Shown here in pieces: positions 1 through 48,011 of a DNA stretch of 64,000 nt (positions are counted from its first letter, which is position 1; each line of letters starts with the position of its first letter). The notes below the pieces were generated by a model that was not told the origin of the DNA, did no database searches, and worked only from the letters and a program-made list of their open reading frames with translations. Made by a program: the position numbers and the translations under genes. This stretch comes from Thermodesulfobacteriota bacterium. Lineage in GTDB: Bacteria > Desulfobacterota > Desulfobulbia > Desulfobulbales > JBFMBH01. The DNA lies in NCBI GenBank assembly GCA_040755095.1, contig JBFMBH010000006.1, positions 1,290 to 65,289 on the forward strand. Direction: 5' to 3'.

Positions 1-3000
1 AGCGGCCATGGGCCTCGACATCCAGGGAGCGCCAAACCAGGAGCTCCTTTCTGAGGGCATGCAGGAAGGCCCGGTTCATCCGGAGCCAGACATTGGCCTC
101 CCCGGCCTCCCGCACCAGCCGCACCCGGATCTCCAGATAGCCTTCCGCCTCCGCCGCCGGGCAGAACTGCACGTCCACCCGCTGCATGATCCCGAAATCG
201 AACGGCGCCAGCCACACCCGGGCATGGAGGTGCAGGCAGGCCGGGTGCGGGCAGGTGGCCCGGACACAGGCCGCGCCCGGCTCGGCGCTCAGGCGCTCCG
301 GACAGATCTGGGTGATCTCCAGCTCGCCGGTGGAAAAAAGGCCGTGGGAGACGTCCCGGTGGGCCATGAGATAGGAATAGATGAAGCCGCCGATGCTCTC
401 ATGCTCGGCCAGGCGCATGAGAAACGGCAGGGTGATGGCCAGCTCGTTGCCGGTCACCGGCGGCAGGGACCAGGCCCGGTTGACGTCCGGGATGGCGATG
501 GCCGCCGCCACCCGGGCAGGATAGAGCGCCGAGACCAGAACCACTGCCATCACCAGCAGCATGGCCGCCACCCCGGACAGGGAGGAGTAGTTGACCGTGA
601 TGCCGGCCCACAGCGGGGTGCCGGCAAAGAGCCGGGCCGAGGTCTGGGCCAGGAGATAGCCGATCACCACACTCAGGATTGCCAGGGCCAGGGCCTCGGC
701 GATGAAGAGAAAGCCGACATGGGAGGGCGCCAGCCCCACCGAGGTGTAGATGCCGATCTCCCGGCGCCGTTCGAACACCGAGCTGATCATGGTGTTCAGG
801 ACGATGAAGATGGCAATGAGCACCGGCACCACGATATTGGGCACCCCGGAATAGCCCAGGGTGTCGCTGGCATGGTAGAGGAAGGTGCCCTGGGGCTCGC
901 CGGTGAACAGGGCGAGGCCGAAGCGGTCGGCCATCTCGTGGGCCAGGGCCGCCAGGTCGGTGCCGTCCGGCGGCCGGGCGGCCAGGCCCTTGAGATGACC
1001 GCCGGCCGCCAGCAGGAAGCCGGCGCTGGCGATCACCGTCTCCTCGGCCGGCACATGCTGGCAGCGGCTGTGGAAGGCCCGGACCTCCTCTCCGGACTCC
1101 AGGGCCTCCATCTCCGCCTCGGTCATCTCCATGGCCGCCTCGCCGGGGAAGATGACCGGGGTCAGGCTCTCACCGTCCAGGTCCGGCCGCCTCTCCAGCA
1201 GCTCCGGGGCGAAGCAGCCCACCACCCGGAAGGGCCGGCCCCACATCTCCACCGGAGCCGCCTGGGGCTCGGCGGGGTCGATGCCCAGGGCCTGGGCCAG
1301 GGGGGCCGGCAGAAGGAGGGCATCCATCTCCCCCTCCTTGAGCCAACGGCCGCCCACCAGGGTCCGATCGAGGCCGGTGACCCGGGGCTCGCTGGCCGCC
1401 AGGCCCAGGAGACCCTGGGCCTCCACCTGGGCCGATCCGTGCCGCACCGGGAAGCGCAGCGCCCGGCTGGGGTCGTCGTCCTCCAGCCAGACCCGGGGAC
1501 CCACCCGCTCCCGGCCGCCGAAGAAGGCCGCCAGCTGGTCGGCAGCCTGCGGCGGCAGGCTCTGCCAGGAGACGTTCTTCACCAGCAGGCCCTGGTAGCC
1601 GGCCTCCGGAGCAAAGCGGAGCCGGGCGTGGTGGCGGATCCCCTTCACCGTGGTGAAGCTCATGATGGTGAAGGTGAGGATCACCAGGGTGGTGCAGGTC
1701 AGCGCCGTGCGCAGCCGCCGGCGCCGCAGGTTGCTGACCCCGAGAAGAAGGGCGGCCAGCATCGCCTTGCCGCGGCTGATCTCCGTGGCCAGCTGATGCC
1801 GGGCCCGGCGCTGCAGGCCGGCCATCTCGGTCTCGAAGCGGGCGACGATGATGGCGGTGACCAGGAGGGAGAGCCCAAGGATGAAGAAGGCGCCGATCAC
1901 GACCAGGGGGCTGTAGGCCAGCTGGAAGGCCGGATGCACCCGGTAGACCAGGGCGATGAGGGCCACCAGGATGCCGGTAAAGGCGAGGATGCGGCGGTGG
2001 ATGTCCACCGCGGCCACGGTCAGGCGCTCCAGGCAGAAGGCGAAGGGGGCAAACAAGGCGATGTAGAACAGCACGCCGAAGAGCACATCCCGACCGGTGC
2101 TGTCCACCTGGTCGTAAACCCGGCTGGCCAGGGCCAGGGAGCGGTTGCTGGCCGCCACAAAGCCGGAATAGCTGCTGGCCGACAGCGCCGCCATGGCCTG
2201 GGCCAGGGCCTCCCGGCCGCTGGCGCGCAGGTTGCGGATCCGCTCGTCCACCACCCCCCGCTCCTCCAGGGCGTCGATGCGGGGGCCCAGAAGATGCCAC
2301 ATGTCGGAGGCGGCCCGGAAGGCGGTGTAGTAGACCACCGGCCAGTCGTCCACCAGGTAGCCGCGGCCCTCGGGATGCTCCCGGTCGCTGTTCAGGAGGA
2401 TCATCTTCTTGCGCAGGATGGTGTCCGACAGGGTGAGCTTCAACGGGGTGCCCGGCTCCAGAAAGATCGAGGCGACGGTGGAGACCCGGGTGTCGATGCG
2501 GCTGTACCAGTAGCGGACCGGCAGGGTCTCCCGGCGGCCGTCGATGAGCTCGATCTTGGTCAGCGGCCGGAGGGTGCGGGGCTCCAGGAGATCGAAGAGG
2601 GTGAGCTGGCGGCAGGCGAACATGACGAGGTCGGTCTCCATCTGCCGCCGCTGCATCTTCACCCGGTAGGCGTCCTTGCCGGTGCGCTTCTTGTCCACCG
2701 CCCACAGGGTCTCGCCGGTGGCCGGATCGAAGCGGTAGGCCTCCAGGATCACCTTGTCCAGCACATGGCGCTTGTCGGCCACCCCCAGGAGCTCGAAGCC
2801 GCCCCGGGCATCCACCATGGCATGGAAGCGGGCTGGCCCCTGGAAGGCCAGGACCACGGTGCCCGGTGCCGGCTGGTCGGCAAAGAGCTCGCCATGACGC
2901 AGGAACTTGGCCCGGCCCCGCAGCACGGAAAAGCCGTTCGGCGGCGGCTCGCCGGCGGCCAGGCTCGGCGCTGCCGCCAGACCGGTCACCAGGTCGTGCA

Positions 3001-4759
3001 CCAGTCGGGCCTGGTGGCGGGCCCGCTCCCAGTCCACGCCTTGCGGCAGGTCATAGGGGGTGCCCCAGGCCGAACGGCCGTCATGGACCGTGGCCAGGGT
3101 CAGGCCGCGCAGGCCGGCCAGGGCGCTCACCTCGCCGGCCAGGGCCGGCCGGTCCAGGAAATGGCTCTGCCAGGAACGGCTCTGGCTGGGCCGCAGGGTG
3201 TCCCGGTAGAGATCCCCGGCCGGGGAGCCGGCGGCAGCGGCGGCCAGGGCCCGATCCACCAGGCTGTAGGCCGGGGTGCGGTTGACCTGAGGCTTCAAGG
3301 CATAGAGAAAGCCGGAGTGGAAGGCCCCTAAGCCCTGGCCGTGGCTGGACAGATGCAAGGAGACCGCGGCCGCGATCTCGAATTCCCCGACCTGGCGGCG
3401 CAGGCTGGCTGCCGCCTTGAGCAGGCGGGCCTCCCGGCGGCTGGCGGCCAGGAGCCCCTGGCTGTCCTCCTTCGCCCGGGGCACCAGCCAGGCCAGCAGG
3501 GCCTTCTCCTCTGCCGGCAGCCCGCCCCAGGAGCTGCGCCAGCCCAGCCGCCGCAGGACGAGACGCTGGCCGGCCAGGGCCTCGATGCGGGCCCGCCGCT
3601 CCGGACCGGCCTCTTCCATGCGCAGGCGCATGAGTTGGCCGGACAAATCATCCACCTCGGTCTTGATCCGCTCGGCCACCGCCAGCCGCACCGCCAGCGG
3701 TGCCTGCTCCGGCGCATCGGCGGCCTGCGCCAGGCCGGCCAGCACCGCCTCCTGCTCGTCGCTCGCCGCCTGCAGCTCCTTCTGCCGGTCCCGCAGCTCC
3801 TTGGCCCTGAGGCTTACCGCCCAGACCAGCTGGCGCATGCCGGCCTGGGCCTGGGCGTGACCGGCGGAGGCCACCAGCAGGACCGAGCGGGCCGGAGGGG
3901 CGGCGACCAGCCGCCGGGCCGAGGCCAAGAGGGTGGCGATGCCCAGGGCCTCGTCCGCCCCAGGGGAGGCGCCCAGCACCGTGGCGGTGCTGTCGTAGAA
4001 CGTTTCCAGGATCAGAAGCTCACCGGCCAGCCTGGGGTCAGCGCCGGGGACGAGGGCATAGAGGCTGTCGGCCTCCACCTCCTGCCAGGCCACCGAGGCG
4101 GTCAGCCGCGCCTGGCCGGCCAGGATTCCGTCGGATCGCGCCCCGGGCTCGCCCAGGGCGCCGAGGGCCGCCACCGGCAGCCAGAAGCGGGGAAAGGTCA
4201 GGGGGGAGAGCTCCAGCTTGTCGGCCAGGAGGAGGCGGTCGGTGTTGCTCCGGTCGAGATAGATCACCGCCAGGGCGCCCAGGGAGGCGACGGTGAGCCA
4301 GGCGTTGCCGGAATCCAGCTCCAGAAGGACGATGGCGCCGGCCACCGGCCTGCCATCCAGGTCGGCCAACTCGCCGCGGCCGCCGTAGACCAGGGGTCCG
4401 GCCAGGCCGGCCGCCGGCATGCTGCCCGGCGCGATGGCGTTGGCCGCCAGCGGCTGCACCGGGATGGTCAGGCCCGCCGCGGCCACGGTGAGCCGGGCAG
4501 GGCCGGCCCGCAGCACCGGCAAGGCCATGGGCAGACGGGCCGGATGAAGGCCCAGGTCCCGCAGCTCCGCCTCCAGCAGATCGGCCGCCTCGCCGGCGCC
4601 GGGGCTGCCGGTGCTGCGGTCGCCCAGGGCCGCCAGCTCCTCCACCACCCGCACCAGCGGGTCGTTCGCGGCCCAGGCCACCTCGACGGCCGGCGCCGCT
4701 CCCAGACTCGCCACCAGCAGCCCGACTGCGACCACGAAGCCGGGGCGCCAGTCAGCCAT
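1..4759 (-). CDS. Giant tandem-FtsX (MacB/YbbP-like) ABC permease with a very large N-terminal ectodomain containing a degenerate PA/M28-peptidase-like module. The 3' end runs off the window (>=1586 codons).
   Basis: Absent from the ORF track because it has no stop in the window. I read every codon in register with ATG 4759..4757 down to position 2 and found no in-frame TAA/TAG/TGA. N-terminus MADWRPGFVVAVGLLVASLGAAPAVEVAWA looks like a signal peptide or anchor. M28-like block 'ILETFYDSTATVLGASPGADEALGIATLLASARRL'. TM cluster 'VLFGVLFYIALFAPFAFCL / ILAFTGILVALIALVY / LVVIGAFFILGLSLLVTAIIV'. Second module 'LRRRRLRTALTCTTLVILTFTIMSF' plus FtsX signature 'NTMISSVFERRREIGIYTSVGLAPSHVGFLFIAEALALAILSVVIGYLLAQ'. 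The ATG overlaps the upstream ATPase stop by 8 nt. Confidence 0.8.
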   Translation of the reverse strand, partial: MADWRPGFVVAVGLLVASLGAAPAVEVAWAANDPLVRVVEELAALGDRSTGSPGAGEAADLLEAELRDLGLHPARLPMALPVLRAGPARLTVAAAGLTIPVQPLAANAIAPGSMPAAGLAGPLVYGGRGELADLDGRPVAGAIVLLELDSGNAWLTVASLGALAVIYLDRSNTDRLLLADKLELSPLTFPRFWLPVAALGALGEPGARSDGILAGQARLTASVAWQEVEADSLYALVPGADPRLAGELLILETFYDSTATVLGASPGADEALGIATLLASARRLVAAPPARSVLLVASAGHAQAQAGMRQLVWAVSLRAKELRDRQKELQAASDEQEAVLAGLAQAADAPEQAPLAVRLAVAERIKTEVDDLSGQLMRLRMEEAGPERRARIEALAGQRLVLRRLGWRSSWGGLPAEEKALLAWLVPRAKEDSQGLLAASRREARLLKAAASLRRQVGEFEIAAAVSLHLSSHGQGLGAFHSGFLYALKPQVNRTPAYSLVDRALAAAAAGSPAGDLYRDTLRPSQSRSWQSHFLDRPALAGEVSALAGLRGLTLATVHDGRSAWGTPYDLPQGVDWERARHQARLVHDLVTGLAAAPSLAAGEPPPNGFSVLRGRAKFLRHGELFADQPAPGTVVLAFQGPARFHAMVDARGGFELLGVADKRHVLDKVILEAYRFDPATGETLWAVDKKRTGKDAYRVKMQRRQMETDLVMFACRQLTLFDLLEPRTLRPLTKIELIDGRRETLPVRYWYSRIDTRVSTVASIFLEPGTPLKLTLSDTILRKKMILLNSDREHPEGRGYLVDDWPVVYYTAFRAASDMWHLLGPRIDALEERGVVDERIRNLRASGREALAQAMAALSASSYSGFVAASNRSLALASRVYDQVDSTGRDVLFGVLFYIALFAPFAFCLERLTVAAVDIHRRILAFTGILVALIALVYRVHPAFQLAYSPLVVIGAFFILGLSLLVTAIIVARFETEMAGLQRRARHQLATEISRGKAMLAALLLGVSNLRRRRLRTALTCTTLVILTFTIMSFTTVKGIRHHARLRFAPEAGYQGLLVKNVSWQSLPPQAADQLAAFFGGRERVGPRVWLEDDDPSRALRFPVRHGSAQVEAQGLLGLAASEPRVTGLDRTLVGGRWLKEGEMDALLLPAPLAQALGIDPAEPQAAPVEMWGRPFRVVGCFAPELLERRPDLDGESLTPVIFPGEAAMEMTEAEMEALESGEEVRAFHSRCQHVPAEETVIASAGFLLAAGGHLKGLAARPPDGTDLAALAHEMADRFGLALFTGEPQGTFLYHASDTLGYSGVPNIVVPVLIAIFIVLNTMISSVFERRREIGIYTSVGLAPSHVGFLFIAEALALAILSVVIGYLLAQTSARLFAGTPLWAGITVNYSSLSGVAAMLLVMAVVLVSALYPARVAAAIAIPDVNRAWSLPPVTGNELAITLPFLMRLAEHESIGGFIYSYLMAHRDVSHGLFSTGELEITQICPERLSAEPGAACVRATCPHPACLHLHARVWLAPFDFGIMQRVDVQFCPAAEAEGYLEIRVRLVREAGEANVWLRMNRAFLHALRKELLVWRSLDVEAHGR

Positions 4760-5489
4760 GGGCCGCGATCCCACCCACCGAGATGGACAGCTCCTCCCGG
4801 TCGCCGATGCGCTCGATGCGGCCGTCCCGGATCCAGACCACCTGATCCGAGACATTGAGCATCTTGATGTCATGGGTGGCGGAGATGATGGTCACCCCCC
4901 GCTCCTGGGACAGGCTCTTGAGCAGGGCGATGATCTCCTCGCCGGTGGCGAGATCCAGGTTGCCGGTGGGCTCGTCGGCCAGGATGATGGCCGGATCGTT
5001 GGCCAGGGAGCGGGCCACCGCCACCCGCTGCTGCTGGCCGCCGGACAGCTCCGAGGGCTTGTGACGGAAGCGCTCGCCCAGGCCGACCAGCCCAAGGAGG
5101 CCAAGGCCCTTGTCCACGGCGGCGTCGTTGGCCATGCCGGCAAAGACCATGGGCAGGGTGACGTTCTCCAGGGCGGTCATCACCGGAATCAGGTTGAAGG
5201 TCTGGAAGATGTAGCCGATCTTCCGGCAGCGCAGCCAGGCCAGCTCGTAGGCATCCAACTGGGCGATGTCCACCTCGTCGATGAACACCTTGCCGGTCGT
5301 GGGCTTGTCCAGGCCGCCGATCATGTTGAAAAGCGTGCTCTTGCCCGAGCCGGAGGGCCCCATGATGGAGATGTAACGGCCGGCGGCGATGGTGAGGTCG
5401 ACGCCCTTCAAGGCCTGGACCTCGGTGCCGCCCATGGCAAAGGTCTTGGTGACCCCGGCGACCCGGACAATGGCGTGACCGCTCGTCAT
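4752..5489 (-). CDS. ABC transporter ATP-binding protein, MacB/LolD-type (245 aa)
   Basis: Walker A 'GPSGSGKST', Q-loop 'FQTFNLIP', signature 'LSGGQQQRVAVAR', Walker B 'ILADEPTGNLD', H-loop 'ATHD'. I chose ATG 5489 (MTSGHAIVRVAGVTKTF). The track ORF extends to 5849 through low-complexity sequence with poor GC3. Confidence 0.9.
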   Translation of the reverse strand: MTSGHAIVRVAGVTKTFAMGGTEVQALKGVDLTIAAGRYISIMGPSGSGKSTLFNMIGGLDKPTTGKVFIDEVDIAQLDAYELAWLRCRKIGYIFQTFNLIPVMTALENVTLPMVFAGMANDAAVDKGLGLLGLVGLGERFRHKPSELSGGQQQRVAVARSLANDPAIILADEPTGNLDLATGEEIIALLKSLSQERGVTIISATHDIKMLNVSDQVVWIRDGRIERIGDREELSISVGGIAAHG

Positions 5490-5557: not shown

Positions 5558-6259
5558 TCACGGCTCGACGCGCATGGCTTCCACCGGCTGCATCCGGGCC
5601 GCCACCAGCGCCGGGTAGACGACCCCCAGGAGGCTTAAGCCACAGCCCACCGCCGTGGCCCGGCCCGCGGTGGCCAGAAGCGCTGGCCAGACGGAGCCCG
5701 CCAGAACCGCCGGTCCGAACCGGACCCAGGCGGTGAGGAAAGCGGCGAGCACCCCGATGAGGGCGCCGGCCGCCGCGCCAGCCAGGCCTTGCATGCCAGC
5801 CTCCAGAAAGAAGAGCCGGACCACGAAGCGATCCAGGGCGCCCAGGCATTTCATGGTGCCGATCTCCCGGAAGCGCTCGGTGACCGCCATGAGCTGGGCA
5901 TTGACGATCCCCACCGTGCAGACCAGGAGGGAGAGGATGACGATCCAGCGCTCCTTGGCGCTGCTGCCGATGCTGGCCTGGCCCGGCGCCAGATCGTGGC
6001 CGGCCCGGATCAGGGCCTCCCGCAGGCCTTCGTCACCGGTGGCCAGCAGGCCGTTGGCCAGCTCGATGCTGCTCTGGACAAAGGCCAGAAAAGCCACCGC
6101 TGCCACCAGGGTCAGGGTGGTGATGAGAGAGCGCAGGAAACGGACCCGGATGCTCTGGAAGGCGATGAGCACCGACTTGGCGAGGGGCAGCCGCACCTGC
6201 CGGCCGGCAGCATGCGTCGGGACAGAAGCAGGGTCGGAAGACGACAGGGTACGGGTCAT
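5558..6259 (-). CDS. Small FtsX-family ABC permease (233 aa, 4 TM, minimal extracytoplasmic loop)
   Basis: TM1 'LITTLTLVAAVAFLAFV'. FtsX core 'NAQLMAVTERFREIGTMKCLGALDRFVVRLFFLEAGMQGLAGAAAGALIG'. C-terminal 'YPALVAARMQPVEAMR'. Confidence 0.85.
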   Translation of the reverse strand: MTRTLSSSDPASVPTHAAGRQVRLPLAKSVLIAFQSIRVRFLRSLITTLTLVAAVAFLAFVQSSIELANGLLATGDEGLREALIRAGHDLAPGQASIGSSAKERWIVILSLLVCTVGIVNAQLMAVTERFREIGTMKCLGALDRFVVRLFFLEAGMQGLAGAAAGALIGVLAAFLTAWVRFGPAVLAGSVWPALLATAGRATAVGCGLSLLGVVYPALVAARMQPVEAMRVEP

Positions 6260-6272
6260 GGCACAGGAGATT

Positions 6273-7091
6273 CTATACTGGTGCGGTGGGGCTTGTCCAA
6301 CCCTCTGGCAGCAGATGACCGAAATGCACCAGCCGCACCCCTGGCAGGCGTGCCAACCCGGCCAGGAGCGCGTCCAGGAAGACGAAGGCCGCCTGGTTCA
6401 TCCGCTGGTGGTGGATCATGATGCCGCAGCGGTCGGCGGCCAGCCCCTGGGCCAGCTCTTCCAGGAGAATGGCCGCCGCGGCTGCCGGCTCGGACTGCCG
6501 GCGGGTGTGCAGATCCACCCGTACCGGCAGCTCGGTCACGCCCGGCTGCGCCGGCGGCAGGGCGCCTTGCCAGCGGGAGAGCACCGGCAGGCCCAGCCCC
6601 GGCAGCAGGGCCAGGGCCGTTTCACTCATGCGGTTCCAGGGCGGCGTGAACGCCGGGAAGAAGGCCTCACCCAGGATCCCGGCCAGCCGCTGCCGGCCCT
6701 TGGCCAGATCGGCGCGCAGCTTTGCCTCCGGCCGGGCGGCGCCAAACTCCTCCTTGCGGCCCGCGGGCTGGTGGTTGCGGTGGCGCCAGCCGTGCTGGTG
6801 CCAGCACCACAGATCCGGATCGACGCCGGCGACCAGGGCCCGGATCTCCTGCCAGCGCCGGCTGGTGAGCCAGGCCGGCACCACCGCCAGGGCCAGGGGC
6901 ACGTGATGCCCGGCGAAGGTGGCCAGGAGCCGGGCCAGGTTGCGGCCCGGCACACCGATATCGTCGGCCCGGAAAAAGACCGCCACCGGCGCTGCCGCCG
7001 GCCGGCGGGCCACCGCAGCCAGCAGGGCCTGCAAGCGGGGCAGGAGGTCGGCAGGCGGCGCCTGCCACAGGGGCACGGGGGGCCGGGTCAT
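6273..7091 (-). CDS. Polysaccharide deacetylase-like protein (NodB/CE4 or DUF2334-type fold)
   Basis: 'VFFRADDIG' (Asp pair), 'HQHGWRH' (HxxxH), 'TPPWNR'. The ATG overlaps the stop of the upstream glycosyltransferase as ATGA (7088-7091). Confidence 0.7.
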   Translation of the reverse strand: MTRPPVPLWQAPPADLLPRLQALLAAVARRPAAAPVAVFFRADDIGVPGRNLARLLATFAGHHVPLALAVVPAWLTSRRWQEIRALVAGVDPDLWCWHQHGWRHRNHQPAGRKEEFGAARPEAKLRADLAKGRQRLAGILGEAFFPAFTPPWNRMSETALALLPGLGLPVLSRWQGALPPAQPGVTELPVRVDLHTRRQSEPAAAAAILLEELAQGLAADRCGIMIHHQRMNQAAFVFLDALLAGLARLPGVRLVHFGHLLPEGWTSPTAPV

Positions 7092-8245
7092 GGCAGGCGT
7101 CCCTCCTGCACCAGCTGCCGCAACAAGGACGCGGTCCGGGCGGCGCCGTCCAGATCCACGGCCGGCGGGGCGGCGGCCCGCCGGCCCAGGGCCTGGGCCA
7201 TGCGACGGGCCAGAGGCGCCGGCTCCAGGTCCTCGTCCTCCAGAATGCCCAGGCCGGTCCTGGCGCCCAGCCGCTCGGCCCGTAGCCGCTGCTCCCGGTT
7301 CTGGTCAAAGGGCCACACCAGAGCCGGCACGCCGGTGGCCAGGATATTCATGGTCGTGTTGTAGCCGGCCATGCTCACCGACAGGTCGGCGGCCGCCAAG
7401 AGATCCAGGAACTGGTCGCTGAAGCGCTCCACCCGCAATCCCGGCCCGGCCTGGGCCTGGAGGGCTGCCAGGTCCGCCTCCGGCAGAAACGGGCCGCTCA
7501 GAACGAGGAGCAGACCCGGCCGTTGCAGCAGGGGCCAGGCCGCCGCCACCGCCCGCAGGAGGGGGCCGGCCACCGCGCCGCCGCCGCCGCTGGCCACGAC
7601 CAGGATGTCGCCGGCCGCAAGCCCCAGCTCCTGCCGCACGCGACCAAAAGCCCCAGCCCCCGGCCGCGGCGCCACGAAGCCGGTGTAGCGCACCGGCGGC
7701 CGGATGGCCCCCAGGCTGCCAAAGGTTTCCGCCAGGGACAGGACCGCCGGATCGGCGTGGACGAGCACGGCGTCGAAGAACCGGTTCAGGGTGGACACCA
7801 CCCGCTCCTCGTAGCCGGCGGTGTCCTTCTTCTCCACCAGCACGTCCCGCAGCGAGGAGACCACCCGGCAGGCAGGCAGACGGCCGTCCCGGATGCCAGC
7901 CAGAACCGGGTCGAGCTCCCGGCGGAAGGCCTTGCGGCCGAAAGGGTAGAGCTCCACCAGGAAGAGGTCGGGTGCCTCGGCGGCACAAAGGGCCAGGAGC
8001 GCCTCCTGCCGCTGGCGCCAGATGGCCTCCACCGGGGCGTCCTGGGCCTGGAAGCCGGTGAAGGCGGCGTCCATCATCAGGGCCGGCAGCCGGATCTCCC
8101 GGACATGGGCCGGCAAGCGCACCGGCACGGCGGCGCCGCCCGTGACCAGGAGTACATGCTCCCCCGCCAGGGCCTCGTCGATGGCCAGGCTGCGGAAGAG
8201 ATGCCCCATGCCCAGGACATGCTGGCAGTAGTGGAGGACCTTCAT
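7088..8245 (-). CDS. Glycosyltransferase, GT28 C-terminal domain / COG4671-like (385 aa)
   Basis: N-terminal 'YCQHVLGMGHLFRSLAI', Gly-rich 'VVASGGGG', C-terminal 'SVSMAGYNTTMNILATGVPALVWPF..REQRLRA'. Paralog of 11331..12521. ATGA overlap with the upstream phosphatase stop. Confidence 0.75.
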   Translation of the reverse strand: MKVLHYCQHVLGMGHLFRSLAIDEALAGEHVLLVTGGAAVPVRLPAHVREIRLPALMMDAAFTGFQAQDAPVEAIWRQRQEALLALCAAEAPDLFLVELYPFGRKAFRRELDPVLAGIRDGRLPACRVVSSLRDVLVEKKDTAGYEERVVSTLNRFFDAVLVHADPAVLSLAETFGSLGAIRPPVRYTGFVAPRPGAGAFGRVRQELGLAAGDILVVASGGGGAVAGPLLRAVAAAWPLLQRPGLLLVLSGPFLPEADLAALQAQAGPGLRVERFSDQFLDLLAAADLSVSMAGYNTTMNILATGVPALVWPFDQNREQRLRAERLGARTGLGILEDEDLEPAPLARRMAQALGRRAAAPPAVDLDGAARTASLLRQLVQEGRLP

Positions 8246-8841
8246 AACGGTTGGGCGTTGACCCTGGTGACAGCCAGCTGGCCGGCGGTCGCGGTCAGGA
8301 GATGGAGATGGCGCGGCGCCAGCGGTGAAGGCCGGCCAGCCACAAAGTCATGTCCGGTCAGCCGGTAGACAAGGCACTTCACCACCCCCTCGTGAGCGAC
8401 CACCAGGATCCGGCCGCCGGGCCGGGCCGCGGCAGCCGCCAGCAGGGCCTGGCGGCTGCGCTCCCAGACCTGGCCCCGGTCCTCGCCGCCGGGGGGCCGG
8501 AACCCCCAGCCGGCCGCCTCCTGGGCTGCCACCGCCTGCCGGTCCAGGTCGGCAAGGCGGCAGCCGGTCCAGGTCCCCCAGTCCTGCTCCCGCAGCCGGC
8601 CATCCACCAGGACCGGCAGGCCCAGCTGGTCGGCCAGCCCCAGGGCCGTGGCCCGGGCGCGCCCCAGATCGCTGGTCAGGACGCCCTGCCAGCCGTGGCC
8701 GGCCAGGGCTGCAGCCCAGCGGCTGATCTCGGCCTGGGCCCCGGAGGCCAAGGGGCTGTCGGCCTGGCCCTGGATGCGGCGCTCCTGGTTCCATACCGTG
8801 GTGGCGTGGCGCATGAGGCCAAAAAGGGTGGAATCCGTCAT
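8242..8841 (-). CDS. Histidine phosphatase family protein (phosphoglycerate-mutase-like)
   Basis: 'LMRHATTVWN' (RH catalytic motif), 'DWGTWTG', 'VVAHEGVVKCL'. ATG 8841 overlaps the stop of the upstream GT4 gene (ATGA). The track start GTG 8853 is an alternative. Confidence 0.75.
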   Translation of the reverse strand: MTDSTLFGLMRHATTVWNQERRIQGQADSPLASGAQAEISRWAAALAGHGWQGVLTSDLGRARATALGLADQLGLPVLVDGRLREQDWGTWTGCRLADLDRQAVAAQEAAGWGFRPPGGEDRGQVWERSRQALLAAAAARPGGRILVVAHEGVVKCLVYRLTGHDFVAGRPSPLAPRHLHLLTATAGQLAVTRVNAQPL

Positions 8842-9962
8842 CCCCTGCCCCACCTGGCCGCCACCTGGCGCAGAAGCTGGTCCACGACGCCGTAGCTCCG
8901 GTCCAGATCGTGGTCGCGGCGGACGTGCTCCCGGGCCGCCTCCGCCATGGCCTGGCGGCGGCCGGCGTCGGCCAGCAGCCCCCTGACCGCGGCGACGAAG
9001 GCCGGCATGTCGAGGGGCGGAGTCAGCAGGCCGGTGCGGCCATCCGCCACCACCTCCGGGATGCCGCCATTGGCAAAGGCCACCACCGGCAGGCCGCAGG
9101 ATTGGGCCTCCAGGTAGACCATGCCCAGGCTTTCCCGGATGCCGGGAAACACAAAGAGGTCACCCGCCGAATAGACCCGGGCCAGCTCCAGGCGGGGCAC
9201 CCGCCCCAGGAAGCGCACCCGGCCCGGCAGCCAACGGTCTGCCAGGGCGCGGAGGCGGGACTGCTCCTCGCCATCGCCGGCAATGGCCAGGAGGAGATCG
9301 ATCCCCGACTGCACCAGGCGGCCGCAGGCCTCGATGGTGCAGGCCAGGCCGTCCGCCTTCACCCCGGGCCGGAACATGGCAGCGCTCACCACCACCGGCC
9401 GCTCGCCGGCTTCCCAGGCGGCGCGCACGGCTGCCCGGCCACCGGCGTCGAAGACAAAATCCCCGGGCCGGATGCCGGGGACCACATAGACCACCCGCTC
9501 GGCAGGCAGCAGGCGCCGGAGGTTGACCTCGTCCGCCCGGCGGTTGGTGAAGACCAACTCGGCCGCCAGCAGGGCCCGGCGGTTCAGGATGTACCCGGGC
9601 CAGGTGCGCCAGTCCCGGCGCCGCTTGGTGGAATAGATGCCCTGGAAGACCACATAGGGCAGCCGGCAGCGGCGGGCCACCACCGGCCCCAGGAGGTCCG
9701 GGGCCTTGTAATAGGCATGGTAGGTGAGCCACAGATCCGGCCGCTGGCGGTAAAGCTCGCCGCGCAGCCGCCGGCGCTCGGCCATGACCGCCAGCCATGC
9801 CCAGGGCTTCCAGGGCAGCCAGCGGGCCCGCAGGCGGCTGGCCACCGCCACCGCATGCCCCTGCCGCCGCAGAAAATCCCGCAGCCCACTGCCGATCACC
9901 AGATCCCCGGACGGGTGCGGATGATCCAACGGCTTCATGGGCGCGTACAAGGCGATGCGCAC
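8838..9962 (-). CDS. GT4-family glycosyltransferase (374 aa)
   Basis: 'VFPGIRESLGMVYLEAQSCGLPVVAFANGGIPEVVADGRTGLL' (E-x7-E region). GTG 9962 is preceded by GGAGG with an 8-nt spacer. The track ORF start at 10118 adds a non-coding-looking leader. Confidence 0.85.
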   Translation of the reverse strand: MRIALYAPMKPLDHPHPSGDLVIGSGLRDFLRRQGHAVAVASRLRARWLPWKPWAWLAVMAERRRLRGELYRQRPDLWLTYHAYYKAPDLLGPVVARRCRLPYVVFQGIYSTKRRRDWRTWPGYILNRRALLAAELVFTNRRADEVNLRRLLPAERVVYVVPGIRPGDFVFDAGGRAAVRAAWEAGERPVVVSAAMFRPGVKADGLACTIEACGRLVQSGIDLLLAIAGDGEEQSRLRALADRWLPGRVRFLGRVPRLELARVYSAGDLFVFPGIRESLGMVYLEAQSCGLPVVAFANGGIPEVVADGRTGLLTPPLDMPAFVAAVRGLLADAGRRQAMAEAAREHVRRDHDLDRSYGVVDQLLRQVAARWGRG

Positions 9963-10068
9963 AGCTGATGCCTCCGCAAGAACAGCCTTTCCGTACGGCC
10001 GCGGCGCTTTTCTTCCAGGTCCCACAGGACCAACACAAGACCTACGCTCGCCGCCCCCGGCGGCCAGC

Positions 10069-11319
10069 TCAATCCGGCGCTGCCAGGGCTCCCCGGAACA
10101 GGGCCGCCAGCTGGCCAATGAGCTGCCGGTTGTCGAAGCCCTGGGCCACCCGCTGCCGGCCAGCGGCGATCACCTGCTGCCGGAGCCCGGGATCGGTGAG
10201 AAGCCGGGCCATGGCCGCTGCCATGGCGGCAGGATCGTCCGGGGGCACCAGCAGGCCGCTGGCGCCGTCCTCCACCAGCTCGGGGATGGCGGAAACGGTG
10301 GTGGCCACAACAGGCACCCCCATGGCCAGACTCTCGGCCAGGACGTTGGGGATGCCATCCCGGTCGCCGTTGGCGGCGATCCGGCAGCCCAGGACAAAGA
10401 GATGCGCCTGCGCCAACTGGGCCTGCACCACTTGGTGGGGCTGGGTGCCCAGCCAGGAGCAGATGCCGGCCAGGCCCAGCTGCCGGGCCAGGGTCTCCAG
10501 GGCCGACCGCTCCTCCCCGGCGCCGATGAGGGTGTGACGGACCGGCAGTCCCTGGTCGGCGAGGCGGCGCACCGCCCGCAGCACGGTGTCCAGTCCCTTC
10601 TTGGCGGTGAGGCGGGCCACGGTGAGGATCTGGAACGGTGCCGCCGGGGCGGCCGGTCCGGCGGCCGGGGCGCTGAACAAGGACAGATCGATGCCGTGGT
10701 AGATCCGGTGGATCGGGGTGCTGCCATAAGCCAAGCGGGCCAGGTACTGGCGGTTGTGCTCGGTGCAGGTGACGACAAAGGCGGCGGCGGCGATCTTTTC
10801 CGCCAGGGAGCTGGGCTCGCTGGTGTAGATATCCTTGGCGTGGGCGGTGAAGCTGAAGGGCAGGCCAGCAAGAAGGCTGGCGAAGCGGGCCACCGAGGTG
10901 GGGGAGTGGGCGAAATGGGCATGGAGATGGCCCACCCCGGAGCCAGGCAGGAGATGACCCACCAGATAGCCGGCCTGGAGGAGATGCTTGATCGTCGCCA
11001 GGGGCCGGCCGGCGGCCAGCCGGCGGCGGGCCAGGCCCAGGGCCTGGCGGTAGCGGCCCGGCTGCCGCCGGGCCAGGGCCAGGTTGTGAGCCAGGAGCCG
11101 CGGCAGGGGCCGCAGGAGGGTTTCCGGCAGATAGTCGACCCGGGCGCGGATCCGCTGGACGCTGGCGTGGCTGAAGCTCTCCCGGGGCTGGCGCATGGAG
11201 AAGATCCGGATGCGCAGCCCCAGCTCCGAAAGAAGCAGGATCTCGTTGGAGATGAAGGTCTCGGAGATGCGGGGATAGCCCTTCAGGATCATGCCCAGCA
11301 CCGGGCTTGGGGCGTCCAT
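10069..11319 (-). CDS. GT4-family glycosyltransferase, WcaL-like
   Basis: 'KGYPRISETFISNEIL', 'FTAHAKDIY', 'GIPNVLAESLAMGVPVVATTVSAIPELVEDGASGLLV'. Start is ATG 11319 or ATG 11292 and remains unresolved. The track start at 11466 overlaps the upstream gene. Confidence 0.8.
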   Translation of the reverse strand: MDAPSPVLGMILKGYPRISETFISNEILLLSELGLRIRIFSMRQPRESFSHASVQRIRARVDYLPETLLRPLPRLLAHNLALARRQPGRYRQALGLARRRLAAGRPLATIKHLLQAGYLVGHLLPGSGVGHLHAHFAHSPTSVARFASLLAGLPFSFTAHAKDIYTSEPSSLAEKIAAAAFVVTCTEHNRQYLARLAYGSTPIHRIYHGIDLSLFSAPAAGPAAPAAPFQILTVARLTAKKGLDTVLRAVRRLADQGLPVRHTLIGAGEERSALETLARQLGLAGICSWLGTQPHQVVQAQLAQAHLFVLGCRIAANGDRDGIPNVLAESLAMGVPVVATTVSAIPELVEDGASGLLVPPDDPAAMAAAMARLLTDPGLRQQVIAAGRQRVAQGFDNRQLIGQLAALFRGALAAPD

Positions 11320-11330
11320 CAGGGCTCGAC

Positions 11331-12521
11331 TCAGGCGCGGAACAGGGCCAGGCGCTGGCGCATCACATCCAGACCGGTCAGGGGGAAGCGGGCCATGGCC
11401 TGGCGAAAGGGCTCGGGGTCGGCCAGGATACGGAGGATCTTCTCCTTCATGGTGGCCGGGGTGCACTCGCCCCAGGGGATGAAATCCACCAGCCCCTGCC
11501 GCTTGAGGGCCTGGGCGCGCAGAAGCTGCTCCCTGCGCGGCGTCTCCCGGGGGATGATGAGGGAAGGTTTGCCCTGGGTGAGGATCTCGCAGATGGTGTT
11601 GTAGCCGCCCATGGTGACCACAAGCTCGGCGGCGGCCAGCAGGCCCTCCATGTGGCGCACAAAGGGCAGGATGCGCACCCCGAGCCGGCGGGCCCGGACC
11701 GCCAGGTCCCGCCGCTCCTGCCTGGGCATGAAAGGCCCGGTGACCAGGAGGGAGGTAAAGGGCAGCCGGCCCGCCGCGGCCTCGACCATGGCCAGGAAGG
11801 TGTCCATGACCGCAAAGCCGTCACCGCCGCCGCCGGTGGTCACCACCACCAGCCGCTCGCCGTTGGCCACCCCCTGGTCCCTTTTCAGCCGTCGTACCGC
11901 GTCGTTCTCCGGGGTCTTCCGGGGGATGTAGCCGGTGAAGATCATCTTGCGGGCCACCGCCTCCGGGATCCCATACTCGACGATGGGGTCATAGAGCTCC
12001 CGGTTGCCGTAGACCCAGATCTCGCTGTAGAGATCCGCCAGGGCAGAGTAGACCTTCTTGTCCTCCCAGTCCTGGCGGACGGTGGCGGCGTCGTCCATGA
12101 TGTCCCGGAGGCCCAGGATGGTGCGGGCCTCGGGAAAGCAGCGCTTCAGCCAGTGCAGGGTGGGCAGCACCTCCCGCTTGAGGCCCAGGGGCTCCTTGTC
12201 GACGATGAACAGGTGGGGCCGGAAGGTGCGGGCGGTGGCGGTGATGATGCTCTTGCGGATGCTCAAGGCATGCTGGGGATGGATCTTGATGGACAGGGGT
12301 AGATACTCCTCGTTGGTCTTCTTGATCATGCCCGGGATGCGCACGAAATCGATCTGCTCCGGGAAGCTGAAGCGGCCAACGATGGGCGAGCCGGTGAGGA
12401 TAAGGATGTTGACCTCCGGCCCGATGAGCTGGGAGGCGATGGCCATGGTCCGCCGGATGTGTCCCAGGCCATACGTGTCATGGGAGTACATCAGGATGTC
12501 GTACGTGCCGTTACGGACCAT
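11331..12521 (-). CDS. Glycosyltransferase, GT28 C-terminal domain / COG4671-like (396 aa)
   Basis: 'MYSHDTYGLGHIRRTMAIA', 'VVVTTGGGGDG', 'VVTMGGYNTICEILTQGKPSLIIPRETPRREQLLRA'. ATG 12521 is preceded by AAGGAG with a 6-nt spacer. Confidence 0.8.
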   Translation of the reverse strand: MVRNGTYDILMYSHDTYGLGHIRRTMAIASQLIGPEVNILILTGSPIVGRFSFPEQIDFVRIPGMIKKTNEEYLPLSIKIHPQHALSIRKSIITATARTFRPHLFIVDKEPLGLKREVLPTLHWLKRCFPEARTILGLRDIMDDAATVRQDWEDKKVYSALADLYSEIWVYGNRELYDPIVEYGIPEAVARKMIFTGYIPRKTPENDAVRRLKRDQGVANGERLVVVTTGGGGDGFAVMDTFLAMVEAAAGRLPFTSLLVTGPFMPRQERRDLAVRARRLGVRILPFVRHMEGLLAAAELVVTMGGYNTICEILTQGKPSLIIPRETPRREQLLRAQALKRQGLVDFIPWGECTPATMKEKILRILADPEPFRQAMARFPLTGLDVMRQRLALFRA

Positions 12522-12614
12522 CGAGAGCTCCTTGATGAAAGGAGAACAAGCTGGCTGGCACTGCTGGCGGCCCCTCGGCCAGGGCAGAACCATAGCATAC
12601 CGCACCGGCGGGTG

Positions 12615-13220
12615 TCACCGGGGAAACCGGGGATTCCCGGCAGAATCGATCTCCGGCCGGAACGGGGGCAAGCTCACTCCCCGGTCGCTGAGCCGGAAGC
12701 GGGGCCGGTTGAGGCGAGCAGCGATGGCCTCGGCATCGTCCGGCCCCCGCTCACCGATCTTGCGGGCCGGCACCCCGGCCCAGATCTCGTAAGGGCCGGG
12801 ATTCCTGGTCAGCACCGAGCCGGCGCCCAGCACCACCCCGTCCGGGATCTCGCTCACCTGGTAGAGAACCAGGGCGCCGTCATGGATCCAGACATCGGCG
12901 CCGATGTACTTGTCCTGCCACAGGAGGCCGTGCTCGGCTTCGGTCCGGGCCAGGGGCTTGCGGCCGAGATGGAGATGATCATGGGTGTAGATCCGGCAGC
13001 GGTGGCCAATGTTGCACCAGGGCCCAAGATGGATGGAGCCGGTGCAGTCCAGGAGGGCAAAGCGGCTGAGGATGATGTTGGTCTCAAGACCGGGCGTGGC
13101 AAAGACCGCCGGGTCCAGATAGAGGTCCCCTTTGCGGAATTTCTTGTGGGGAAAGCGCCGGGCCGCCGCCACCGCCACCGCCAACTGCTCCCGGGTCAGG
13201 GTCTCCAGAGGATACGGCAT
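12615..13220 (-). CDS. Left-handed beta-helix (hexapeptide-repeat) acyl/acetyltransferase
   Basis: 'IGADVWIHDGALVLYQVSEIPDGVVLGAGSVLTRNPGPYEIWAGVPARKI'. ATG 13220 is preceded by AAGGAG (13230..13235). Confidence 0.75.
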   Translation of the reverse strand: MPYPLETLTREQLAVAVAAARRFPHKKFRKGDLYLDPAVFATPGLETNIILSRFALLDCTGSIHLGPWCNIGHRCRIYTHDHLHLGRKPLARTEAEHGLLWQDKYIGADVWIHDGALVLYQVSEIPDGVVLGAGSVLTRNPGPYEIWAGVPARKIGERGPDDAEAIAARLNRPRFRLSDRGVSLPPFRPEIDSAGNPRFPR

Positions 13221-13330: not shown

Positions 13331-13373
13331 AGAAAAGAAAAAAGGGGCCGTAACCCCTTCGGATTACGGCCCC
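13331..13373 (-). terminator. Rho-independent terminator following tRNA-Ala(CGC)
   Basis: Minus strand reads GGGGCCGTAA-TCCGAAGGGG-TTACGGCCCC (10-bp perfect stem, 13344..13353 / 13364..13373) followed by TTTTTTCTTTTC. Confidence 0.75.
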
Positions 13374-13383: not shown

Positions 13384-13459
13384 TGGTGGAGATGAGGGGA
13401 TTCGAACCCCTGACTTCCACGATGCGAACGTGGCGCTCTCCCAGCTGAGCTACATCCCC
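13384..13459 (-). tRNA. tRNA-Ala (anticodon CGC)
   Basis: Reverse complement GGGGATGTAGCTCAGCTGGGAGAGCGCCACGTTCGCATCGTGGAAGTCAGGGGTTCGAATCCCCTCATCTCCACCA. It has a G3:U70 identity pair, anticodon loop TTCGCAT, T-loop GGTTCGAATCC and an encoded CCA. Confidence 0.95.
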
Positions 13460-15948: not shown

Positions 15949-16319
15949 GGTTCGGTTGCATGTGACAGGGCACCACGCGCGACGCCCTGGCCTCCAGGCC
16001 CTTCCTGACGGCCCATCGCCTCAGTGTAGGGAAACCGTCCTCGTCCGTCAAGGGAGCTATCAGGGCAGCGGCGGAGAATCCAGGCTGATTCCTCAAGTGA
16101 TCATGAGCAGTTACTGCTGGGAGGGCCATCCGGACCGCGCCGGTGCTCAGCGCGAATAGCGGGGCAGGCAGCCCGACCCGAGGGGCGTCCCCAGCGGCCT
16201 CCGAGCGAGAACTTTTTGTCCCATACTCCGGCAAGCCGCGCCCTTGACTGTTGTCAAACCGGGTCGGCTGTGTTAAAGAAGGGGTCTTTCCGGTCCCGCT
16301 TCGGGTGGCCGGATCGTCC

Positions 16320-16395
16320 GGCGGCGTAGCCAAGTGGCCAAGGCAGCGGTCTGCAAAACCGTTATTCGGCGGTTCAAATCCGCCCGCCGCCTCCA
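16320..16395 (+). tRNA. tRNA-Cys (anticodon GCA)
   Basis: GGCGGCGTAGCCAAGTGGCCAAGGCAGCGGTCTGCAAAACCGTTATTCGGCGGTTCAAATCCGCCCGCCGCCTCCA. Anticodon loop CTGCAAA, discriminator U73 (typical of Cys), encoded CCA. Confidence 0.95.
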
Positions 16396-16406
16396 GATAC
16401 GCAAAA

Positions 16407-16439
16407 GGGGCTGAACGGCGATCCGTTCAGCCCCTTTTT
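16407..16439 (+). terminator. Rho-independent terminator after tRNA-Cys, possibly bidirectional
   Basis: GGGGCTGAACGG-CGAT-CCGTTCAGCCCC (12-bp perfect stem) followed by TTTTT. It is preceded by AAAA, so the minus strand also reads stem plus TTTT. It lies about 180 nt beyond the nuoN stop. Confidence 0.85.
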
Positions 16440-16614
16440 GCTGTCCCTCTTCCCCGCCCGCCCCCCACGCCAATCTCGCAAAGGGGCCTCACCCCCAGGA
16501 AAAACTCTGCAGGGGCTGCCCGTCGCGCCGCGACAGGCCAGCCCCTGTGTGCCTCCCCGACCGCGCCCGACCGAGCGGGCGCCCCCCCTTCTGCCCGGCC
16601 GCCGGTATTCCGGC

Positions 16615-18036: not shown

Positions 18037-18087
18037 CGTGGGTCCTTGTCGTAGGCGTCTTGTTCGTCAGCCGGGCGTGATCGTCAT

Positions 18088-19614: not shown

Positions 19615-19636
19615 GGCTTACCCCGGGAGAACGCTG

Positions 19637-21439: not shown

Positions 21440-21683
21440 AGTAATCCTCCCGGGTCATGATGCCGAGATGGCCGAACCACTTGGAGACAAAGATGATGAG
21501 GGTGCAGGAGATGAAGCCGAACACCGCCCAGAATCCCGGCCAGTGCTCGGGGCTGGTGTGCGCGTGCTCCTTGCTCACAAAGACGGCATCCCACACCACC
21601 AGGAGTGCCAGCACGATGTAGCAGACCAGAACGACGGTCTTGAGCCGATCGCGCAGGAAGTCGATGAGCTTAACCAAGTCCAT
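21429..21683 (-). CDS. Small two-TM membrane protein of unknown function embedded in the nuo operon (84 aa)
   Basis: Predicted TMs 'TVVLVCYIVLALLVVWDAVFV' and 'GFWAVFGFISCTLIIFVSKWFG'. It overlaps the upstream gene by 14 nt and the downstream gene by 11 nt, which is a coupling geometry. I recognise no family. Confidence 0.65.
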   Translation of the reverse strand: MDLVKLIDFLRDRLKTVVLVCYIVLALLVVWDAVFVSKEHAHTSPEHWPGFWAVFGFISCTLIIFVSKWFGHLGIMTREDYYDK

Positions 21684-23157: not shown

Positions 23158-23175
23158 AACGGTCTCCCTTCCCTC

Positions 23176-23496
23176 CTATCCTTTCAGCTCCGCCACATCG
23201 TCAACGACGATGGACTTGTAGTTGCGGTAGACGGCCAGGATGATCGACAGAGCGATGGCCGCCTCGGCGGCGGCGATGCCCATGATGAACAGGGTGAAGA
23301 CCTGACCGGACACCGGATCCGGCACCAGGAAGCGGTTGAAGGCCATGAAGTTGATCGAGGCGCCGGACAGGATCAGCTCCGAGGCGATGAGCATACCGAT
23401 CAGGGTGCGGCGGTGGATGATACCGTAGATGCCGATGGCAAACATGAAGGCACCCACGATGAGGTAGGTCTGCAGGTTGGCTGCGAGGGTCAGCAT
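23176..23496 (-). CDS. nuoK: NADH-quinone oxidoreductase subunit K
   Basis: 106 aa, 3 TM. 'LIGMLIASELILSGASINFMAF' and 'IAAAEAAIALSIILAVYR'. Confidence 0.9.
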   Translation of the reverse strand: MLTLAANLQTYLIVGAFMFAIGIYGIIHRRTLIGMLIASELILSGASINFMAFNRFLVPDPVSGQVFTLFIMGIAAAEAAIALSIILAVYRNYKSIVVDDVAELKG

Positions 23497-23497
23497 T

Positions 23498-25454: not shown

Positions 25455-25498
25455 GGGCAACGATACCCTCCGACCCCAGTGGGCAGGGCCTTGTAGGA

Positions 25499-27072: not shown

Positions 27073-27073
27073 G

Positions 27074-27933: not shown

Positions 27934-27983
27934 GGCGCGCACTCCTTGGAAAAGGGTTGTTCATGGGCGGCAGCGTTCCGGGT

Positions 27984-47966: not shown

Positions 47967-48011
47967 GACTCGCTCCTCTCCGGTAGGGGGCCGCAGCAGC
48001 CCCGGGGATCC

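Follow-up and report, generated by a model that had tools for sequence, protein, structure and literature searches.

Conserved linkage of a glycosyltransferase cassette to a giant-subunit ABC machine points to an undescribed delivery of a sugar compound to the cell envelope

Introduction

How does a sugar compound reach the cell envelope when the genes for its assembly stand beside none of the classical priming and export genes? This question is raised by ten consecutive genes, here named A to J, in a 64,000-nucleotide stretch of DNA (hereafter the window; ~70% G+C) from a metagenome-assembled genome of Thermodesulfobacteriota. Genes A to G form a biosynthetic cassette that includes four glycosyltransferases, whereas genes H, I and J encode an ATP-binding cassette (ABC) system of the FtsX type, in which J is a giant permease. 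In related loci, two further membrane-protein genes, K and L, follow J. The cassette is linked to this unstudied machine, with its ABC subunit of ~1,600 residues, in more than a hundred genomes of sulfate reducers, which suggests that a sugar compound is brought to the envelope in a manner not yet described.

Among the sulfate reducers and hydrocarbon degraders of marine sediments, Desulfobacterales and their relatives are dominant, and little is known about their envelope glycoconjugates. The locus joins five uncharacterised elements, namely COG4671-type glycosyltransferases, a cytoplasmic DUF2334/CE4 enzyme, a DUF6785/6784 protein, a membrane protein of 653 residues and the giant FtsX protein. 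Searches of the literature found no papers on DUF6785/DUF6784 (PF20581/PF20580) or on COG4671. If the coupling described here is functional, two domains of unknown function gain their first functional context.

Co-occurrence of the cassette and the ABC genes

The association was sampled from both sides. On the glycosyltransferase side, a scan seeded with F and restricted to one genome per species gave 80 loci, mostly from metagenome-assembled genomes of Desulfobacterales, with a few from Syntrophobacterales and unclassified lineages, and these were searched by tblastn with ten window proteins. The block B-C-D-E-F-G was conserved across these loci, and H-I-J adjoined the cassette in 25 of the 32 that had at least 5 kb on both sides. 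On the permease side, homologues of J, all of about 1,600 residues, were used to seed 80 metagenome loci. Twenty of these had at least 8 kb upstream, and the cassette was present in 18 of them; the other two carried H-I-J without an upstream cassette. K and L lay downstream in 43 of the 45 loci with at least 3.5 kb on that side. The same gene set in the same order is found in more than 100 independent loci.

Three architectures were distinguished. In the first, which is that of the window and is identical in loci L159 and L160, the genes are colinear ([A]BCDEFG-HIJKL). The second is divergent (J'I'H' / b-A-C-[D]-E-F-G), and in the third a canonical CE4 gene replaces G. The cassette and the ABC genes stay adjacent in the colinear, divergent and CE4-swapped arrangements alike. 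The preliminary description of this DNA had proposed that the glycosyltransferases are functionally tied to the FtsX-type ABC system, and the counts from the permease side (18/20) and the glycosyltransferase side (25/32) bear this out; the co-occurrence test, run in both directions, did not show the cluster splitting into unrelated neighbourhoods. The cassette and the ABC genes behave as one system, and their coupling is real and conserved.

Other families accompany the system in related loci. These include a canonical CE4 enzyme, a 394-residue GNAT protein, GSCFA and SGNH-like proteins, an extra GT4 enzyme, a third COG4671-type glycosyltransferase and, just upstream of H, a CCoAOMT-type O-methyltransferase. 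A radical SAM/SPASM gene occurs in 15 related loci (<10% of loci), a GT-C (PMT-like) protein together with a TPR protein in nine, and an adenylate cyclase recurs in 8 loci of Desulfobacterales. Most of the accessory genes are of the carbohydrate-tailoring kind, as would be expected of a decorated glycan more than of a simple solute.

The biosynthetic enzymes

All genes discussed here lie on the minus strand of the window. The preliminary description had listed seven pathway genes, and the Pfam and NCBIfam domain assignments agree with that list. Gene A (12615-13220) encodes a soluble protein of 201 residues, predicted to be a left-handed beta-helix (LbH, hexapeptide) acyl/acetyltransferase. 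Its Pfam Hexapep match is weak (E 1.1e-4), 19 NCBIfam acetyltransferase families match below threshold, and the NCBI label is 'acyltransferase'. It was found in 16 of the 53 well-covered loci.

Two of the four putative glycosyltransferases are of the GT-B type with a GT28/GT1-like C-terminal donor domain. B (11331-12521, 396 residues) is the first 'COG4671-like' copy and F (7088-8245, 385 residues) is the second; they match Glyco_tran_28_C at E 1.3e-14 and 8.8e-9, respectively. Homologues of B that are 57-68% identical occupy the same position in related loci. F has more than 3,500 homologues, and its PDB profile matches reach only the C-terminal halves of YjiC-type GT1 enzymes and of MurG. 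The other two belong to GT4. C (10069-11319, 416 residues) resembles EpsE and WcaL across its full length, with matches to Glycos_transf_1 (1.8e-31) and to the NCBIfam families EpsE (5.1e-59) and WcaL (3.5e-40), both under the family cut-offs. D (8838-9962, 374 residues) has a GTG start with a GGAGG ribosome-binding site and matches Glycos_transf_1 at E 2.5e-32. It shows weak similarity to BshA, MshA and sucrose-phosphate synthase, scoring 79 bits against MshA (cut-off 462) and 84 bits against BshA (cut-off 274).

E (8242-8841, 199 residues) is predicted to be a histidine phosphatase of branch 1 (His_Phos_1, E 9.7e-43); present in 48 of the 53 well-covered loci, it is among the most conserved members of the system. 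The last gene of the cassette, G (6273-7091, 272 residues), encodes a cytoplasmic, deacetylase-like protein tentatively assigned to the CE4 superfamily (NodB fold, DUF2334 type). The copy in the window has only a weak DUF2334 match, which is under the Pfam cut-off (4.5e-4). Across the family, DUF2334 is found in 21 of 23 members and Polysacc_deac_1 in 14 of 23 (best 4.9e-7), and the motifs FRADD, HQHGWxHxNH, FTPPWNR and DLHT are invariant. A PDB profile search with the sequence of G gave no usable match. A comparison by hhalign with the accessory CE4 family returned a probability of 3% and was dropped as evidence.

None of the proteins A to G has a signal peptide or an N-terminal membrane anchor. 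For this reason, assembly of the product in the cytoplasm, as had been suggested from the sequence earlier, is plausible.

The ABC machine H-I-J

Permease H (5558-6259, 233 residues) is small. It matches FtsX at 1e-13 and LolC/E weakly, and its hydropathy indicates four transmembrane helices and a periplasmic loop of only ~40 residues. ATPase I (4752-5489, 245 residues) is ~75-85% identical across loci. It matches ABC_tran (1.6e-33) and is close to LolD (9e-65), the MacB nucleotide-binding domain (1.5e-63), FtsE (5.8e-58) and DevA (3.7e-58). All of its NCBIfam matches are below the equivalog cut-offs, so it is a member of the class that falls into no named orthologue group.

J (2-4759) is cut by the window edge, with 1586 of its 1616 residues inside. 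It matches Pfam FtsX (PF02687) at 8e-12 and M28 weakly, MacB_PCD (PF12704) is found in many of its homologues, and its PDB matches include MacB, YtrF and Spr0694-type permeases. Its N-terminal anchor (residues 6-30) is followed by a PA plus M28 aminopeptidase-like domain with a coiled-coil insertion (residues ~40-350, window ~3700-4650; PDB 2ek8, 1.4e-10) and by a family-specific ectodomain of ~300 residues (~600-890). Then come three extra transmembrane helices (890-977), an Arg-rich cytoplasmic loop, an FtsX module with a MacB-type periplasmic domain (1018-1424) and, at the C-terminal end, a Cys-rich cytoplasmic tail.

When the M28 domain is aligned with 2ek8 and YwaD, a Phe or Tyr stands in place of the first zinc-ligand His (AFYDS), and the catalytic Glu-Glu pair has likewise been exchanged (GHA). 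Both substitutions are shared by all 16 homologues compared; the alignment of the last two ligands is uncertain. Because the first ligand and the Glu-Glu pair are lost throughout these homologues, the PA/M28 domain probably serves in binding, as in the transferrin-receptor class, and not as a peptidase.

The family-specific ectodomain was found in 183 representative clusters (E <=1e-10), and nearly all of its full-length carriers have 1,450-2,075 residues, with the ectodomain in the same position. Since it is confined almost wholly to proteins of this size, a wider family of giant J-like proteins exists; about 180 distant members were found at 25-35% identity. The predicted model of the ectodomain (residues 596-892) was poor (pLDDT 48.8), and a fold search with it was uninformative.

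Residues 874-1466 of J (window ~360-2140, minus strand) match the PADLOC profile 'CARF_m8--CARF_LolE_TM' at E 1e-51, which suggests that a LolE-like membrane module of the J type is fused elsewhere to CARF sensor domains in CRISPR-associated proteins. PADLOC found no CARF domain and no defence context at the locus itself, with generic matches only for ATPase I and none for A to H. A role in anti-phage defence was rejected, the only hit being the membrane module of J, without partner genes.

On its FtsX domains, its LolD/MacB-like ATPase and the MacB_PCD domain of its homologues, H-I-J is classed as a type VII ABC system. Equivalents of the HlyD-type adaptor, the TolC-like outer-membrane factor, LolA and EnvC were all absent from the conserved neighbours in 81 cassette-seeded loci; an unlinked adaptor or outer-membrane factor could still exist. 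The 'MacB-like' pump invoked in the preliminary description is therefore not the best analogy, as no adaptor or outer-membrane partner is conserved. A better one is an adaptor-less, giant-subunit type VII machine accompanied by two novel membrane proteins.

The membrane proteins K and L

In related loci, J is followed by genes for two polytopic membrane proteins of ~650 residues, for example at L097:14845-16848 (K) and L097:17093-19054 (L). As only 1,289 bp of the 65,289-bp contig lie beyond the window, K and L are off the window in our genome and at best truncated on the contig. Two metagenome contigs (L094 and L158) carry H-I-J with 8-10 kb of flank and no K or L.

K has ~660 residues and consists of DUF6785 and DUF6784 (E 1e-160). 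L, with 653 residues, is the most conserved member of the system (89% mean column identity); it gave no Pfam, NCBIfam or PDB profile match. BLASTP and hhalign found no relationship between K and L, and a chimeric K+L consensus query, meant to gather homologues of both families, returned K only. An AlphaFold model of K, built with 41 homologues, is of low confidence (pLDDT 57.5, pTM 0.60). Only one PDB structure stood out from noise, that of barley Yellow Stripe 1 (HvYS1), a member of the OPT superfamily (Foldseek probability 1.0), with TM-scores of 0.41 (query-normalised) and 0.45 (target-normalised), a single match to a low-confidence model. We keep the OPT-like fold as a weak lead only.

Type VII ABC machines act periplasmically or extract molecules from the outer leaflet, and do not move substrates across the inner membrane (PMC5985334, PMC12646458). 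K and L are thus natural candidates for the crossing of that membrane, and we consider them the likeliest candidates for the step that otherwise appears to be 'missing' from the locus.

Absence of classical priming and export genes

The preliminary description had stated that the window holds no classical priming or export gene. This holds for the parts of the window scanned with Pfam (A to J also with NCBIfam), where no WbaP/WecA, Wzx, Wzy, Wza/Wzc or Wzm/Wzt gene was found; stretches such as ~24-25.5 kb, 31-34 kb and several small open reading frames were unscanned or unassigned in that search. Pfam assigned other window genes to a chemoreceptor, a nuo-type cluster, a subtilase, sensor kinases, mreBC-pbp2-rodA, hemE, a radical SAM protein, cheR, a helicase and a GH3 enzyme.

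The same absence extends to the family level. Among the families that recur in at least 6 of the 81 cassette-seeded loci, there is no PGT/PNPT, Wzx, Wzy, PCP/OPX or ABC-2 family. The ABC permeases of the locus are of the FtsX type only, and it has no ABC-2 permease with a cognate ATPase. K and L show no similarity to the Wzx, Wzy or Wzc/Wza families.

Layout of the operon and its surroundings

Codon-position G+C analysis and the listing of open reading frames place the ten genes consecutively on the minus strand, from 13220 to the left edge of the window, and the derived starts and stops of A to I are identical to the NCBI calls MEW6218310-18. The single direction reported earlier is thereby confirmed. 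Of the four ATGA stop/start overlaps reported with it, three are genuine, namely D/E (8838-8841), E/F (8242-8245) and F/G (7088-7091). The fourth, at 5486-5489, is the ATG of ATPase I plus an A and not an overlap, since H has already stopped at 5558-5560. A GTGA at 5558-5561 would be an overlap only if ATPase I began at the GTG of 5561; the NCBI call uses another start. Between I and J there is an overlap of 8 nt (ATGGCTGA, 4752-4759). Gaps within the operon are 106 nt at most, the one between G and H being 13 nt, and a scan for terminators found no strong one from A to J.

A tRNA-Ala(CGC) gene lies at 13384-13459 on the minus strand (ARAGORN; Rfam tRNA, 68 bits). The terminator scan, together with a reading of the sequence, placed a terminator made of a 13-bp GC-rich hairpin and a T-run at 13344-13373, on the same strand. 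As these two elements stand directly upstream of gene A, the 5' boundary of the operon is well defined. Farther upstream is darP, on the plus strand.

A sigma-70-like promoter match lies at 6299-6270 on the minus strand (TGGACA-18-TAGAAT, 10/12), in the 3' end of G and just before H. It is a consensus match only, and it could be an internal promoter for H-I-J. Over 9 kb there are three sigma-70-like sites, whereas shuffled sequence would be expected to give 0.3.

Two other features of the window were recorded. A nuo/Mrp-type cluster at 16000-28000 contains four Proton_antipo_M matches (antiporter-like subunits) and NuoK-, NuoD- and NuoA-like genes, and its G+C content is 62-65%, against 70% in its surroundings. 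A radical SAM/SPASM gene at 46932-49106 (minus strand), unrelated to the operon, directly adjoins hemE (uroporphyrinogen decarboxylase) and may encode a haem-related maturase.

A possible pathway and its alternatives

What, then, might these genes do together? We tentatively favour, with a probability of about 0.45, a self-contained system of ~12 genes in which cytoplasmic enzymes build a decorated glycoside or oligosaccharide and pass it to a type VII ABC apparatus dedicated to it. From the predicted enzymes we infer an acceptor, an order of steps and a direction of transport, as follows. The GT4 enzyme D, or C in loci that lack D, would glycosylate a phosphorylated small-molecule or lipid acceptor. 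The histidine phosphatase E would then strip the phosphate, following the usual logic of synthase and phosphatase, and make the step irreversible. A GT4 enzyme beside a soluble phosphatase is a classical set-up, known for sucrose phosphate, glucosylglycerate phosphate and GlcNAc-inositol phosphate, and the locus shows a weak similarity to it. The other GT-B enzymes (B, C and F) would extend the glycan, G would N-deacetylate an acetamido sugar, and A would decorate the product; in other loci, decoration could fall to the GNAT, O-methyltransferase and SGNH-like accessory enzymes. Assembly would be wholly cytoplasmic and would use no polyprenyl-phosphate primer encoded in the locus.

The product would then be handled by H-I-J-K-L, with K and L providing or assisting its passage through the inner membrane. 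H and J would form a heterodimer with two copies of I, and ATP-driven mechanotransmission would act in the ~1,100-residue periplasmic part of J. This part, including the putative non-catalytic PA/M28 binding domain, may serve to extract the product, to pass it on or to anchor it in the outer envelope. Glycolipids or hydrophobic molecules embedded in the membrane are established substrates of type VII systems, as in DevBCA/HgdBC (PMC6161253), YbbAP-TesA (PMC12646458) and the systems reviewed for MacB (PMC5985334).

A stronger form of this proposal is possible, with the odds against it. The locus could represent a new route of glycoconjugate delivery, independent of undecaprenyl phosphate and of the Wzx/Wzy, ABC-2 and synthase pathways. 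A decorated oligosaccharide or glycolipid, made in the cytoplasm, would cross the inner membrane by way of the DUF6785/6784 and L families. A heterodimeric type VII motor without an adaptor would then set it into the outer envelope, using the dead PA/M28 domain as a module for substrate binding or hand-over.

Several observations weigh against the assembly of a glycoside for a dedicated machine. All of the glycosyltransferases score below the cut-off of every named orthologue group in NCBIfam. In 7 of 32 genomes, among them that of Desulfonema ishimotonii, no H-I-J lies within 5-10 kb of the cassette. D is missing in about a quarter of the loci and G in about 30%, so the 'synthase-phosphatase-deacetylase' chain D-E-G is not universal. 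The OPT-like fold of K has no counterpart in its sequence (Pfam OPT in 0 of 41 homologues at E <=5; no PDB sequence match), and the characterised OPT proteins are importers. Finally, C with its likeness to WcaL/EpsE, and B and F with their MurG-like donor domains, have the typical features of enzymes for undecaprenyl-pyrophosphate-linked intermediates, and a primer may therefore be encoded elsewhere.

The last of these observations is the core of the alternative that survives best, although we still rate it as unlikely: that the locus makes a conventional polyprenyl-phosphate-linked surface glycan (LPS-core, O-antigen-like or capsular), with an unlinked primer, with K and L as a novel flippase, polymerase or ligase, and with H-I-J in a later envelope step. 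WcaL, EpsE and MurG-type enzymes act on acceptors linked to undecaprenyl pyrophosphate, C resembles the first two over its full length, and B and F carry the MurG-type donor domain. Unlinked priming genes are common, and the GT-C (PMT-like) and TPR proteins of nine related loci are of a type that uses polyprenyl-phosphate sugars. Such a pathway would nonetheless leave two facts without a place: no priming, flippase or export family recurs in at least 6 of the 81 cassette-seeded loci, and a soluble histidine phosphatase, which has no role in the classical pathways, is kept in 48 of 53 loci.

A second alternative, which we consider improbable, holds that the product stays in the cytoplasm, where it could be a compatible solute, an oligosaccharide (for storage, or methylated) or a glycoside akin to a redox cofactor, and that H-I-J-K-L is merely a frequent neighbour. 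Pairs of a GT4 enzyme and a phosphatase make soluble glycosides, such as sucrose phosphate, glucosylglycerate and mycothiol precursors, and weak matches to these are seen here. The cassette on its own in 7 of 32 genomes, the lack of a cassette beside H-I-J in 2 of 20 loci and of K and L in the two metagenome contigs, and the promoter-like site before H also agree with a loose association. However, the linkage is strong in both directions and survives rearrangement, the gap between G and H is only 13 nt, and four glycosyltransferases with tailoring enzymes exceed the needs of any known solute pathway.

The direction of transport could also be reversed. H-I-J-K-L would then be an uptake or processing machine, and the cassette would make a metallophore-like secreted molecule that is recaptured, or would modify an imported substrate. 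The only structural match of K is to an OPT-superfamily importer of metal-chelate complexes, a related B-C-F trio in rhizobia (see below) adjoins an Opp-type import system, and MacB-family pumps export siderophores (PMC5985334). We give this alternative little chance: the OPT link is one fold match of a low-confidence model with no sequence support, the locus shows neither chelator-type chemistry nor a TonB-dependent receptor, and the M28 catalytic residues are lost. Least probable of all is that the glycosyltransferases modify a protein or peptide (an envelope protein, J, K or L themselves, or a ribosomal peptide) which the ABC system exports or processes, for although the M28-like domain, the OPT-like fold, the radical SAM/SPASM gene of 15 loci and the Opp-like and cyclic-nucleotide-linked ABC genes around the rhizobial trio could be read in this way, no conserved short precursor reading frame or leader peptidase turned up (no specific search was made), radical SAM genes occur in <10% of loci, and a phosphatase and a deacetylase fit such a product poorly.

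Comparison with known systems

The preliminary description had also left room for a characterised homologous locus, and none was found. Related to the cassette are trios of genes on rhizobial megaplasmids, with B-, C- and F-like genes in that order and 43, 40 and 40% identity to the window proteins. They are carried by Sinorhizobium pSymB-type replicons, by S. medicae pMl3 (L162), by pRL11 of R. johnstonii 3841 (59.7-63.3 kb; L163) and by R. etli CFN42. The trio comes without counterparts of D, E, G and H-I-J-K-L, and its neighbours encode an Opp-type ABC importer, a 904-residue ABC protein, a cyclic-nucleotide-binding protein and an adenylate cyclase. The msbA2 operon of S. meliloti (SMb21188-91), which is described as making and exporting a polysaccharide of unknown kind (PMC3687685), was considered as a match to the trio and judged to be a different locus. 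It has two glycosyltransferases and an acyltransferase and lies at ~938 kb of pSymB, whereas the trio lies at ~897-907 kb in other strains. We found no functional data on the trio in the literature, and the paper on the Clr regulon gave no link to it. If the coupling described here is functional, this three-glycosyltransferase module of rhizobial symbiosis plasmids gains a handle for study.

Rhizobia also provide a parallel in the Nod-factor pathway (NodC/NodB/NodA, NodL, NodS and NodIJ). Like the pathway proposed here, it has a primer-free cytoplasmic oligosaccharide, a cytoplasmic CE4 deacetylase (with G as its putative counterpart), an LbH O-acetyltransferase, an optional methyltransferase and a dedicated ABC exporter. 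The locus differs in that it has no NodC-type GT2 synthase and no NodA, and the Nod-factor exporter (NodIJ) is of the ABC-2 type, whereas that of the locus is of the FtsX type.

The pathways of mycothiol (MshA/MshA2/MshB) and bacillithiol (BshA/BshB) likewise place a GT4 enzyme beside a phosphatase and a deacetylase, all of them cytoplasmic. The putative deacetylase of the locus is of the CE4/DUF2334 type and not LmbE, a Cys ligase is lacking, the locus has three more glycosyltransferases, and the scores are far below the cut-offs. The thiol-glycoside logic that had been proposed at first rests on similarity to MshA and BshA that is far below threshold, with the LmbE deacetylase and the ligase absent from the locus.

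A parallel to the pairing of glycosyltransferases with an FtsX-type system is found in cyanobacteria. In DevBCA/HgdBC-TolC, which serves the heterocyst glycolipid, an ABC system of the MacB family is genetically linked to the synthesis of a glycosylated envelope lipid (PMC6161253). With this precedent, calling a glycolipid and a MacB-type machine an unusual pairing, as had been done for this locus, was an overstatement. ATPase I scores 197 bits against DevA and does not reach the cut-off of 296. DevBCA has the adaptor DevB, a TolC-like duct and a polyketide synthase with a glycosyltransferase; the locus has no adaptor, duct or polyketide synthase.

The ABC genes themselves are best compared with the type VII machines as a whole (MacB, LolCDE, FtsEX and YbbAP). 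They share FtsX permease domains with a periplasmic domain between the first and second transmembrane helices, a LolD/MacB-like ATPase, a permease heterodimer as in LolC/LolE and a large periplasmic effector as in FtsEX-EnvC and YbbAP-TesA (PMC5985334, PMC7668044, PMC12646458). MacAB and DevBCA need an adaptor and a duct, and LolCDE, FtsEX and YbbAP have soluble partners; neither kind of partner is conserved here. Unlike its relatives, J, with its 1,616 residues, carries a fused, inactive-looking PA/M28 domain, a coiled coil, an ectodomain of its own, three extra transmembrane helices and a Cys-rich tail, while its partner H is nearly devoid of a periplasmic domain and K and L follow in 43 of 45 loci. 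Judged by its domains, the ABC part of the locus is in the type VII class and outside its named systems. If its coupling to the cassette is functional, the type VII 'mechanotransmission' machines gain a further task, the handling of an endogenous glycoconjugate without an adaptor or a duct.

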